Origin: Phycisphaeraceae bacterium
GTDB lineage: Bacteria > Planctomycetota > Phycisphaerae > Phycisphaerales > Zrk34
NCBI GenBank assembly: GCA_028282805.1
Contig: JANQHD010000012.1
Span: 1-25,084, forward strand
Length of the DNA stretch: 25,084 nucleotides
Reading direction: 5' to 3'
How positions within the stretch are numbered: the first letter of the stretch is position 1; every line of letters starts with the position of its first letter. Below, piece by piece: positions 13,261 through 14,606 of this stretch. The notes below the pieces were generated by a model, which was not told where the DNA came from, made no database searches, and saw nothing but the letters and a program-made list of their open reading frames with translations. The position numbers and the translations under genes are program-made.

Positions 13261-14511
13261 TCAATCCTTGTACGGATCGAACTCGTCCTCGCCGGCCATG
13301 GCCACGCCGATCGGCGTGAGCGTGTGCACGATCTTCACGGTCGAGCCGTGCGCTTCGAGCACGTCGGGCAGACGCTTGTAGCAGTGGGGTGACTCGTCGG
13401 TGCCCGCGCCGCGGAGCGTGACGCCGGCCCGCTTGACCCACTGGTTCATCATCTCTTTCGAGATTTCACCTTCGGACTTGCGGACGAAACCGCCGGCCTT
13501 CTTGTCCCAGCGCTTCTTGCCCGCGGCGCGCGTCCGGCTCATCACGCGGCCCGCGCCGTGGACCGTCGAGTGCAGCGCCGCGGCGCTGTCTTCGCTTTCC
13601 ACGCCCTCGAGGATGACCGAGATATCGCCCATCGAGCCGCCCACGAAGCCACGCTGACCGGGGAACGCGGGCGTCGCGCCCTTGCGGACGACCCACAGTT
13701 CGTGCTCAGAGCCGTCGATCACGTGCGTCTCTTTCCACGCGAAGTTGTGGTGGTTGTGAACCTCTTCCACGATGGGCGCCTTCAGCAGACGCGCGACCTT
13801 GTCGCACACCCAGTCCCGCCCGGCGTAGGCGTACCGGCCGGCCAGGTTCATGCAGCGGATGTACGACTCGCCCAAGTGCGAGCCCTCTTCGAAGACCACC
13901 GGCGCCACGTGCATGCCGTCCGCGCCGCCGCCTTGCTTGATGAAATGCGTCGCCAGCTTGTGGCCCAGGCCCCGGCTGCCGAAGTGTACGCCGCACCACA
14001 CGCGGTCCCGCTCGTCGACGAACAGGTCCACGTAATGGTTGCCCGAGCCGACCGTGCCGAGCTGCTGGCGGGCCAGCTGCTTGAGGTCACGGCACTTGGG
14101 GGCGCGGATGTGCAGGTCGTCGACCAGGTCCCACGTCTCGTCGTCGAACAGCTCGTGGTCGACCCGCTCCTGGTTTTTCCGGCCGACGCCGAATGAAATC
14201 CCGCGAAAGATCATGTCCATGATCTTGTCGATGTCCTTGCGGACGTCCTCGGCCTTGACGTCGAGGCGCACGGCCTTGTTGCCGCAGGCGATGTCGTAAC
14301 CCACGCCCGAGGGCGAGACCATGCCGTGGTACGCCACGACGCCGCCGATCGGCATCGCGTAGCCGAGGTGGTGGTCGCCCATCAGTGCGCCGGCCGCGGC
14401 TTCCTTCTCGGCCAGGCAGGTCTTGATCTGCTTGACCGCGCTCTCATCGGGCACGCCCCACACGGGCACGCCGTCCATCATCGTGTAACCCATGTCACAC
14501 CTCGCTTTCAT
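13261..14511 (-). CDS. rtcB: RtcB RNA-splicing ligase (3'-phosphate/5'-hydroxyl RNA ligase) embedded in the tRNA array
   Basis: RtcB hallmark blocks are present: DHHLGYAMPIGGVVAY, GSGNHY, SMGD and HGAGR. Start candidates are the ATG at 14511 or the ATG at 14493 (GAGGTG RBS). The longer track ORF overlaps tRNA-Gly and is rejected. The gene lies between tRNA-Gly-UCC (22 nt upstream) and a terminator plus the Lys tRNAs. Confidence 0.85.
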   Translation of the reverse strand: MKARCDMGYTMMDGVPVWGVPDESAVKQIKTCLAEKEAAAGALMGDHHLGYAMPIGGVVAYHGMVSPSGVGYDIACGNKAVRLDVKAEDVRKDIDKIMDMIFRGISFGVGRKNQERVDHELFDDETWDLVDDLHIRAPKCRDLKQLARQQLGTVGSGNHYVDLFVDERDRVWCGVHFGSRGLGHKLATHFIKQGGGADGMHVAPVVFEEGSHLGESYIRCMNLAGRYAYAGRDWVCDKVARLLKAPIVEEVHNHHNFAWKETHVIDGSEHELWVVRKGATPAFPGQRGFVGGSMGDISVILEGVESEDSAAALHSTVHGAGRVMSRTRAAGKKRWDKKAGGFVRKSEGEISKEMMNQWVKRAGVTLRGAGTDESPHCYKRLPDVLEAHGSTVKIVHTLTPIGVAMAGEDEFDPYKD

Positions 14512-14532
14512 TTTACCCTTTGTTTCGTGTAA

Positions 14533-14606
14533 TGCGCCGTGCCGGGATCGAACCGGCGGCCTGCTGGTTGGAAGCCAGCCGCTCTGCCAACGTGAGCTCA
14601 CGACGC
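14533..14606 (-). tRNA. tRNA-Gly (anticodon UCC)
   Basis: Acceptor GCGTCGT/ACGGCGC, D-arm GCTC-ACGTTGGCA-GAGC, anticodon arm GCTGG-CTTCCAA-CCAGC, T-arm GCCGG-TTCGATC-CCGGC. It is immediately 5' of rtcB on the same strand. Confidence 0.8.

Follow-up and report, generated by a model that had tools for sequence, protein, structure and literature searches.

A gene for the RNA ligase RtcB within a long tRNA array of a planctomycete and its candidate role in tRNA resupply and repair

Results

An rtcB gene lies within an island of 30 tRNA genes

We analysed a stretch of 25,084 nucleotides (nt) from a Phycisphaeraceae bacterium (assembly GCA_028282805.1, contig JANQHD010000012.1, positions 1 to 25,084 of the forward strand), hereafter called the window. 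It contains a gene for the RNA ligase RtcB that is embedded in a long run of tRNA genes. ARAGORN called 30 tRNA genes in this run, which spans 10413 to 17628 (7.2 kb) and lies entirely on the minus strand. They represent 20 of the 20 amino-acid specificities, and 28 of them reach the Rfam gathering score. No tandem periodicity was seen; the run is a non-periodic, long, same-strand series with short spacers, the form by which an L-array (about 20 tRNA genes or more) is recognized. An initial annotation, made by a model from the letters of the sequence, had placed rtcB directly downstream of tRNA-Gly-UCC within a tRNA array, and ARAGORN, Rfam and Pfam (PF01139) confirmed this placement (Table 1).

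The array and its protein genes form an island of about 7.8 kb between a gene for 2-keto-3-deoxy-6-phosphogluconate (KDPG) aldolase and a gene pair for an extracytoplasmic function (ECF) sigma factor and FecR. The flanks consist of ordinary chromosomal genes, which encode two beta-galactosidases of glycoside hydrolase family 2 (GH2), the KDPG aldolase, the ECF sigma factor with FecR, and a PEP-CTERM protein. Direct repeats or attachment (att) sites flanking the island were searched for and not found, and the 25-kb window holds no phage structural, replication or integrase genes, its flanks being made up of sugar-metabolism and ECF-sigma genes. A 307-amino-acid open reading frame (ORF) at 9383-10306 on the minus strand was rejected as spurious, since it overlaps the genuine KDPG aldolase gene on the opposite strand and a gene for a MerR-type protein.

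Table 1. Positions of the island's features and flanking genes in the window (aa, amino acids; bp, base pairs; SD, Shine-Dalgarno sequence; HTH, helix-turn-helix)
Feature	Position	Strand	Remarks
KDPG aldolase	9461..10105	+	flank
MerR-type helix-turn-helix protein	10180..10386	-	68 aa, HTH only; Pfam MerR E = 1e-13; closes the island after the last tRNA
Last tRNA block: Gly(GCC), Cys, Ser, Tyr, Gln(CUG)	10413..10945	-	ARAGORN + Rfam
Slipin/SPFH protein	11008..12165	-	385 aa; Pfam Band_7; 1 kb downstream of rtcB
Atypical tRNA-like gene, called Asp(GUC)	12556..12635	-	39 bits in Rfam; G33, 8-bp acceptor stem with mismatch, encoded CCA
tRNA-Lys(CUU), Lys(UUU), Arg(UCU), Asn, Trp	12740..13195	-	ARAGORN + Rfam; syntenic in L001-L003
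Hairpin and UUUU 3' of the rtcB stop	13205..13235	-	11 bp
rtcB	13261..14493	-	410 aa; RNA 3'-phosphate/2',3'-cyclic-phosphate to 5'-OH ligase; Pfam PF01139
Spacer tRNA-Gly(UCC)/rtcB	14494..14532	-	39 nt; holds SD GAGGTG
tRNA-Gly(UCC)	14533..14606	-	directly upstream of rtcB; ARAGORN + Rfam
Antisense ORF	14642..15037	+	131 aa; called as a gene on an independent contig; separates tRNA-Pro(CGG) from tRNA-Gly
tRNA-Pro(AGG), tRNA-His, tRNA-Pro(CGG)	15019..15248	-	ARAGORN + Rfam; tRNA-His by ARAGORN only
HNH endonuclease	15322..15930	-	202 aa; Pfam HNH_5/HNH_4, PHROG 16726; SD AGGAGG; start 31 nt past tRNA-Ala
First tRNA block	15962..17628	-	15 genes: Glu, Val, Met, Met, Val, Phe, Ile, Asp, Thr, Arg, Gln, Arg, Leu, Ala, Ala; ARAGORN + Rfam
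Leader small ORF	17692..17913	-	73 aa; between promoter-like element and first tRNA
Promoter-like element	17961..17989	-	TTGCAT (17989-17984), 17-nt spacer, TATATT (17966-17961)
ECF sigma factor and FecR	18081..20260		flank

The RtcB is intact and under purifying selection

The rtcB product matches the Pfam RtcB profile PF01139 (E = 2.6e-66; 225 bits against a cut-off of 27) over its full length and above the curated cut-off, with residues 36-398 corresponding to profile positions 16-424 of 426. It also matches PHROG 1075, 'tRNA splicing ligase' (E = 3e-72). When aligned to RtcB of Pyrococcus horikoshii, the protein retains all nine metal-binding or catalytic residues checked, including the guanylylated histidine: D65, H67, D95, C98, N202, H203, H234, H329 and H404 of P. 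horikoshii correspond to D40, H42, D67, C70, N152, H153, H170, H249 and H312. These nine residues are invariant across 162 homologs. An inactivating mutation of the metal-binding histidines or cysteines, which the initial annotation had named as a possible refutation, is thereby ruled out. The ratio of nonsynonymous to synonymous substitution rates (dN/dS) of rtcB is 0.14-0.23, indicating purifying selection. RtcB enzymes seal 2',3'-cyclic-phosphate or 3'-phosphate RNA ends to 5'-OH ends, and the protein encoded here is predicted to be a GTP- and Mn2+-dependent ligase of this family. The rtcB region had no DNA match among phage and plasmid records in a Megablast search.

The start of RtcB is the ATG at 14493, which is kept in relatives and preceded by the Shine-Dalgarno (SD) sequence GAGGTG; both SD and ATG are conserved in L001-L003 (the closest relatives, described below), and a gene caller chose the same ATG on an independent contig. 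The interval between tRNA-Gly and rtcB, previously given as 22 nt, is therefore 39 nt, the shorter value having been counted from an in-frame ATG at 14511 that is not conserved. The tRNA-Gly(UCC) itself is 85-92% identical to its orthologs in L001-L005, and the changes in its stems keep pairing.

Downstream of rtcB, the claim of an intrinsic terminator followed by more tRNA genes held in part. An 11-bp hairpin is present and tRNA genes do follow, but the hairpin is trailed by only four U residues and was not called by a simple terminator scan. The 65-nt spacer as a whole has a folding energy of -22.4 kcal/mol (z = -2.7), and tRNA-Lys(CUU) starts about 6 nt past the U run, too close for a promoter to fit in between. 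In the window, L001-L003, L148 and L161 a hairpin is found at this position, with a different sequence each time. It is more likely to be a leaky terminator or a protector of the mRNA 3' end than a true intrinsic terminator.

The array, not the gene neighbourhood, is the conserved unit around rtcB

Relatives of the RtcB were collected by scanning one genome per species; 80 genome loci and 81 viral loci of the RtcB subfamily were examined. The five closest RtcBs (loci L001-L005; 79-86% identity) come from metagenome-assembled genomes of Planctomycetota/Phycisphaeraceae. In these loci rtcB lies in syntenic arrays and, where the contig reaches, follows tRNA-Gly-UCC after 41-73 nt and precedes tRNA-Lys (tRNA-Arg in L003). 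The order of the first block of 15 tRNA genes is also syntenic with L001-L005. None of the genes flanking the island in the window is found in the L001-L005 loci, where the arrays lie in other genomic contexts, and the syntenic arrays of six other Planctomycetota-type contigs (including L167) share none of them either. This patchy distribution and the differing insertion contexts indicate horizontal transfer of the array. The long tRNA array of the window, of the kind called 'L-array' or 'tRNA array unit', was probably acquired horizontally, and it is the array rather than the gene neighbourhood that is conserved around rtcB. A coincidental insertion, which array-free homologs at this locus would have suggested, is ruled out because the five closest homologs all reside in arrays. 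Only 26 nt in L002 and 14 nt in L003 separate tRNA-Pro from tRNA-Gly, too little for a promoter of its own, and rtcB is therefore continuous with the upstream array.

The next tier of RtcBs (55-71% identity; many phyla and viral contigs) is mostly without tRNA genes nearby. However, the initial annotation had proposed a search of phage and mobile-element genomes for rtcB beside tRNA arrays, and such cases were found. The same RtcB subfamily occurs inside differently ordered arrays of Acidobacteriota (L059 with 21 tRNAs; L078 with 37) and inside arrays of the IMG/VR contigs L088, L122, L125, L145 and L148 (module contigs of 54-147 kb). The isolated jumbo phage Tunturi_5 encodes an RtcB that is 59.6% identical and lies within a tRNA array, with HNH, RimK-like and CCA-adding enzyme genes nearby (PMC11924767). 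In total, at least five tRNA genes lie within 3 kb of rtcB in 7 of the 80 genome loci and 6 of the 81 viral loci. As long arrays are a tiny fraction of any genome, this recurrence is not a coincidence. Array-embedded RtcBs split into several groups upon average-linkage clustering by identity (unweighted pair group method with arithmetic mean, UPGMA), so a single origin of all of them is unsupported by this crude method.

A metagenome scan with the island's HNH protein added a sister array on a 978-kb contig (L167). It contains an HNH protein 80% identical to that of the window, the same leader ORF and MerR gene, and 20 tRNA genes. The block running from tRNA-Pro(CGG) through rtcB to the slipin gene is entirely absent from it. 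Because the whole block is missing, RtcB and slipin constitute one optional cassette in this array family.

Two assemblies showed further features. L004 and L005 are two contigs of one genome bin (JBCCYY01) that carry two diverged array copies, both broken inside rtcB at the same residue; this suggests a duplicated array or strain variants that collapsed the assembly. In L002, transposase-like ORFs adjoin the array.

Spacing and candidate control elements

The spacer before rtcB is tight and contains an SD sequence: it measures 16-73 nt in 9 of 10 arrays checked and 395 nt in Tunturi_5. On the downstream side, 0-88 nt follow rtcB before the next gene in most of these ten arrays, and in L078 and L122 no nucleotide at all separates the rtcB stop codon from the next tRNA. 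No promoter-like signals were seen in the short spacers flanking rtcB, and the only conserved candidate lies upstream of the leader ORF. Co-transcription of rtcB with the array is favoured by these tight spacers, by the short gap after rtcB, and by the restriction of a promoter-like element to the position before the leader ORF.

The candidate -10 of this element (ATATnnTTnC) is invariant in 6 of 6 aligned arrays, and the candidate -35 (TTGCAT, TTGCAA or TTGCAC) is present in all five arrays whose fetched stretch reaches it. A consensus scan did not call the element, so that conservation is its sole support. The promoter-like element and the leader ORF precede the first tRNA in the window, in L001-L005 and in the RtcB-less L167. 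Across the family the leader ORF encodes 65-79 amino acids, with a conserved N-terminus (MNx(E/K)QQxLNxxERTxCA) and a variable remainder. The position of its stop codon is fixed, and the codon itself is TAA, TGA or TAG depending on the array. Pfam and PHROG scans gave no family match for the ORF, which could act as a translation-sensing leader. Downstream of its stop codon lies a conserved CGACCCACAAC motif.

At the other end of the island, a MerR-type gene after the last tRNA is also found in L002 (14377-14568), L003 (about 14844 to the contig end) and L167 (12971-13135). Its product is a candidate array regulator or excisionase-like protein.

Protein partners of RtcB in the island

The HNH endonuclease has homologs of 71-76% identity in L001-L005, and a homolog is present in 11 of the 13 fetched arrays that carry RtcB. 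A Mycobacterium intracellulare plasmid carries another within an array of 28 tRNAs, and more were found on plasmids of Nostoc, Acaryochloris, Tolypothrix and Calothrix. HNH endonucleases are the commonest protein genes of tRNA array units (PMC5966550, PMC12803027, PMC8421152). The HNH gene is tied to the array and not to RtcB. A PADLOC scan of the array proteins returned generic HNH similarity only. In L049 (Caldilineaceae, 9481-11179), an HNH homolog lies directly upstream of rtcB in a 14.8-kb locus with no tRNA gene, and the HNH-RtcB pair may have persisted there after loss of the array.

The claim that no rtc partner is visible was correct for the canonical ones, as no large ORF in the window matches RtcA, RtcR or Sigma54_activat, but it missed the slipin. 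Homologs of this protein in L001-L003 are 64-72% identical. It also aligns over its full length with a Burkholderia slipin encoded between rtcR and rtcB (34% identity over 375 amino acids, E = 1e-56), in a locus with the order RtcR, slipin, RtcB, RlaP. The rtc locus of Pseudomonas aeruginosa likewise has an embedded SPFH gene (PMC13086221). Among phage records the SPFH protein of the window had no array-linked homolog.

The antisense ORF upstream of tRNA-Gly has a single homolog, at 9143-9493 of L005 (42% identity), where it lies in the sense orientation. It found no match in Pfam, NCBIfam, PHROGs or PADLOC; on this ground its identification as archease, a cofactor of RtcB, was rejected. It looks like a small mobile insertion.

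Structural constraint and unusual RNAs in the array

Comparison of the array tRNAs with their counterparts in L001-L005 revealed 262 double compensatory and 155 one-sided pair-preserving stem substitutions versus 121 broken pairs. As substitutions in stems mostly preserve pairing, the tRNAs are under structural constraint. None of the standard tRNA genes of the array encodes CCA, which is present only in the atypical tRNA-like gene, and in nearly all array tRNAs the discriminator base is followed by TT. Such CCA-less genes with a trailing TT fit processing by RNase Z followed by CCA addition.

In the atypical gene, the D and T arms are conserved in L001-L003 and the anticodon loop differs in each array (GUC, AUG, a 6-nt loop and GAA). 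The gene is part of a composite region (12166-12739, minus strand) between tRNA-Trp and the slipin gene, in which a conserved element of about 100 nt is followed by the atypical gene and then by a remnant resembling a T arm (about 12510-12545). Directly before the slipin SD stand two hairpins of terminator-like form (12261-12247 and 12204-12188). The elements of this region could represent an attenuator or a processing signal.

The U at position 33 (U33), almost universal in tRNAs, is missing from 5 of the 30 tRNAs, three of which have C and two G at this position: Gly-GCC (10874-10945), Pro-CGG (15019-15091), Glu-UUC (17557-17628), His (15100-15173) and the atypical gene (12556-12635). For three of these tRNAs a non-U33 residue is kept in counterparts: L002 has C33 in Gly-GCC and Glu, and both L002 and L003 have C33 in His, where the window has G33. 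C33 is also found in a tRNA-Pro of L002, but this is the isoacceptor Pro-UGG and not Pro-CGG. Every other array examined has C33 in 1-7 tRNAs. The enrichment of non-U33 residues in array tRNAs was not significant against a small baseline of solitary tRNAs (39 of 385 versus 2 of 46). Non-U33 residues may serve in evasion of anticodon nucleases.

The tRNA-Leu at 16183-16256 and the Leu-CAG, Leu-CAA and Leu-GAG genes of L001-L003 measure only 73-76 nt and do not have the long variable arm, a defining feature of bacterial tRNA-Leu. This short form is conserved across arrays with compensatory changes, and the long arm is retained only in Leu-UAA. Heptamer repeats, GATYGNA in four copies (coding strand) and TCTTGAG in 5.6 copies, fill spacers between tRNA genes at 12979-13015, 16139-16175, 16257-16293, 16311-16337, 16527-16553 and 10631-10669; one of them occupies the slot of tRNA-Thr(CGU) in relatives. 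Acidobacterial and phage arrays contain 'tRNA-Ile(UAU)' genes of 92-94 nt (L078, 8297-8390; L122, 9719-9810; L059, 9725-9816; L148, 11529-11622); their variable arm is long, their D arm reduced and CCA encoded, and they are located a few genes from rtcB.

Discussion

A proposed translation-rescue module

We favour, with moderate confidence, the interpretation that the rtcB-bearing tRNA array is a translation-rescue module that combines tRNA resupply with re-sealing of cut tRNAs. The promoter-like element, leader ORF, tRNAs, HNH, RtcB, slipin and the terminal MerR-like regulator would form one operon, in which rtcB would be transcribed within a tRNA precursor. RNase Z cleavage after tRNA-Gly would set the 5' end of the rtcB mRNA, and RNase P cleavage before tRNA-Lys would set its 3' end. 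The hairpin would then shield this 3' end, or act as a leaky terminator. RtcB would re-seal ends bearing a 2',3'-cyclic phosphate or 3'-phosphate and a 5'-OH, the likeliest substrates being tRNAs whose anticodon loop has been cleaved by a toxin or defence ribonuclease, while the array would replenish the tRNA pool. We infer co-transcription, mRNA release by tRNA processing, the substrate and the inducing condition. For the substrate, toxin- or defence-cut tRNAs are suggested by the placement of the gene among tRNAs, by data from Anabaena (PMC8421152) and by the literature on phage counter-defence (PMC7824862, PMC10264068, PMC11555353). A module for resupply and repair had been proposed in the initial annotation. 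Its coupling of ligase and array held, given the conserved arrangement, the recurrence in phages and Acidobacteriota, the intact active site and the purifying selection on rtcB; repair of nuclease-cut tRNAs is a proposed function.

Several points weigh against this interpretation. No anticodon nuclease or toxin is encoded in the 25-kb window, and about 90% of the RtcB subfamily homologs have no array nearby. The sister array that lacks rtcB (L167) indicates that ligase and array are not strictly interdependent. In the window itself, the antisense ORF upstream of tRNA-Gly interrupts the candidate operon, and tRNA-Gly and rtcB could have their own start site here. The hairpin and U4 after rtcB could terminate part of the transcription. 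The array might itself be the housekeeping tRNA set and not supernumerary to one. Finally, the substrates of bacterial RtcB include rRNA as well, with re-ligation of 16S rRNA in Escherichia coli described in work cited by PMC10272220.

Alternative interpretations

The island might instead be a relic or cargo of a jumbo-phage region for tRNA supply and RNA repair, used in counter-defence against host anticodon nucleases and now cryptic or serving a resident mobile element, with no role for the cell. RtcB-in-array modules in phage Tunturi_5 and in IMG/VR contigs of 54-147 kb speak for such a source, as do the HNH endonucleases typical of tRNA regions in phages and plasmids (PMC5966550, PMC12803027), the differing contexts of the array among relatives and the transposase-like ORFs beside the L002 array. 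By contrast, phage structural, replication and integrase genes are missing from the 25-kb window, and so are flanking direct repeats. Moreover, seven chromosomal copies display intact ORFs, purifying selection, compensatory tRNA changes, and a conserved promoter/leader and regulator, and in Anabaena the array is demonstrably used by the cell (PMC8421152). We therefore regard a purely phage-serving or cryptic island as unlikely.

Rather less probable is a general Rtc-type RNA-repair cassette of RtcB and slipin, acting mainly on rRNA or mRNA, that hitch-hiked into an array prone to take up translation genes; its co-expression would be useful without being tRNA-specific. The pair does occur outside arrays in Burkholderia and Pseudomonas rtc loci (PMC13086221), and the whole block is absent from L167. 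Arrays also harbour other translation genes, namely the RimK-like and CCA-adding enzyme genes of Tunturi_5 and the release-factor-like genes of mycobacterial arrays (PMC5966550), and the re-ligation of E. coli 16S rRNA cited in PMC10272220 points in the same direction. Against it, rtcB is placed tightly and conservedly between tRNAs in at least two unrelated array architectures, and the Rtc system of E. coli and Salmonella is reported, in work that PMC10272220 cites, to respond to damaged tRNAs.

It is highly improbable that RtcB matures the array's own RNAs, by joining split, permuted or intron-containing tRNA pieces or by circularizing or repairing atypical tRNA-like elements: the atypical gene with its variable anticodon loop, the T-arm-like remnant downstream and 100-nt element upstream of it, and the odd 'tRNA-Ile(UAU)' genes beside rtcB in acidobacterial and phage arrays lend it some colour, but all 30 array tRNAs are contiguous cloverleaves, a gene for a splicing endonuclease is missing, the tRNAs of L167 are of the same kinds although that array lacks rtcB, and most RtcB homologs are far from any tRNA gene. 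A permissive Rfam search of the array (E <= 1) revealed no tRNA halves or permuted tRNAs, and for split, permuted or degenerate tRNAs and Y RNAs it gave sub-threshold noise only (YrlA 21-29 bits versus a cut-off of 69). The earlier suggestion that RtcB serves split or degenerate tRNA pieces nearby is thus unsupported, given the contiguous tRNAs, the missing halves and the RtcB-less L167.

An extension of the translation-rescue interpretation is speculative and, in our view, doubtful. In it, the island would be a self-contained mobile operon with three layers. The leader ORF and MerR protein would sense translational stress and switch the operon on; the array tRNAs would be partly hardened against anticodon nucleases by their non-U33 residues; and the RtcB-slipin cassette, freed by tRNA processing, would act as a membrane-associated repair station. 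The cassette would be gained and lost as a unit, and the module exchanged between jumbo phages and chromosomes.

Relation to known systems

The linkage and co-regulation of rtcB with L-arrays, the repair-plus-resupply hypothesis and the presence of RtcB in jumbo-phage tRNA sets are already published, and the novelty implied by the initial annotation was overstated, since rtcB in or near long arrays and co-induced with them (PMC8421152, PMC10272220) and RtcB of jumbo phages (PMC7824862) had all been described. What is added here is 1) cases of the link between rtcB and L-arrays outside cyanobacteria, in Planctomycetota, in Acidobacteriota and in an isolated jumbo phage; 2) a fixed slot of rtcB after tRNA-Gly-UCC and the apparent consolidation of tRNAs, HNH, RtcB and slipin in one operon; and 3) the RtcB-slipin block as a cassette, with the leader ORF and MerR gene as candidate regulators. 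The island would thus be a natural example of resupply and repair genes hard-wired in one transcription unit, whose equivalents in Anabaena are scattered under a repressor. It also draws attention to the slipin of rtc loci, which recurs as a partner of RtcB for reasons not yet explained. As a compact module of 7.8 kb, it is relevant to tRNA-targeting immunity and counter-immunity and could be transferred to a model host and challenged there with defined tRNases.

Cyanobacterial L-arrays are the closest parallel. The L-arrays of some species contain, or are linked to, rtcB and an HNH gene (Santamaria-Gomez 2021, PMC8421152; PMC10272220). In Anabaena, translational stress induces both genes along with the array, whose tRNAs are found cleaved (PMC8421152), and TrcR co-represses rtcB, HNH, the tRNA array and the slipin gene alr0740 (PMC10272220). 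Repair by RtcB of tRNAs cut by toxin RNases has already been proposed for these arrays (PMC8421152, PMC10272220). Like the trn operon of Anabaena PCC 7120, the array of the window is long, non-periodic and apparently spread horizontally, and it is associated with HNH, rtcB and slipin genes. Unlike in Anabaena, where these genes are dispersed and tied together by a repressor, rtcB, HNH and slipin would lie inside one operon, and the regulator candidates are a MerR-type HTH protein and a leader ORF rather than a ribbon-helix-helix TrcR with TrcR-box repeats. The host is also of a different phylum, Planctomycetota.

The mycobacterial tRNA array units (Morgado & Vicente 2018, PMC5966550; PMC12803027) resemble the island in their 25-40 tRNAs for 19-20 amino acids and in an embedded HNH of the same family. 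They reside on mobile DNA, and an anti-defence role has been proposed for them (PMC5966550, PMC12803027). In contrast to the island, their hosts are plasmids and phages of Actinomycetota, and the texts of PMC5966550 and PMC12803027 do not mention RtcB. The Rtc variant of Pseudomonas and Burkholderia shares with the island an RtcB accompanied by a homologous full-length slipin (34% identical). Unlike the proteobacterial system (rtcR-rtcB-rtcA), the island has no RtcR sigma-54 activator, RtcA cyclase or RlaP, its RtcB is only about 32% identical to proteobacterial RtcB, and expression would be wired to a tRNA operon.

Coding genes in tRNA transcripts have precedents. In the thrU-tyrU-glyT-thrT-tufB operon of E. 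coli and in mitochondrial tRNA punctuation, tRNA and mRNA are co-transcribed and tRNA processing sets the mRNA end. As in the thrU-tufB operon, a coding gene lies directly downstream of tRNAs in the window; unlike there, the coding genes have tRNAs on either side, and tRNA processing would set both mRNA ends. Repair of cleaved tRNA is known from phage T4, in which Pnkp and Rnl1 repair PrrC-cleaved tRNA-Lys (summarized in PMC10264068). The predicted function of the island is similar in that a ligase would reverse anticodon-loop cleavage from an element that also encodes tRNAs. However, T4 employs an end-healing kinase/phosphatase and an ATP-dependent ligase, whereas RtcB seals 3'-phosphate and 5'-OH ends directly with GTP, and no cognate nuclease is encoded in the window.

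Jumbo phages complement their tRNA sets with ligases of the RtcB or Rnl type (Iyer et al. 2021, PMC7824862). The island has in common with these phages and Tunturi_5 (PMC11924767) a near-complete tRNA set, an RtcB of the same subfamily among the tRNAs, and HNH nearby. The window differs from Tunturi_5 in having no phage genes and in its tRNA order and flanking partners, the CCA-adding enzyme and RimK-like gene being the phage's. In the Tunturiibacter phage Tunturi_5 (L161; PP885688, 233762-254940), the RimK-like gene, annotated as 'ribosomal protein S6 glutaminyl transferase', stands directly after rtcB with a tRNA nucleotidyltransferase gene nearby, and it parallels rimK of the Anabaena TrcR regulon.

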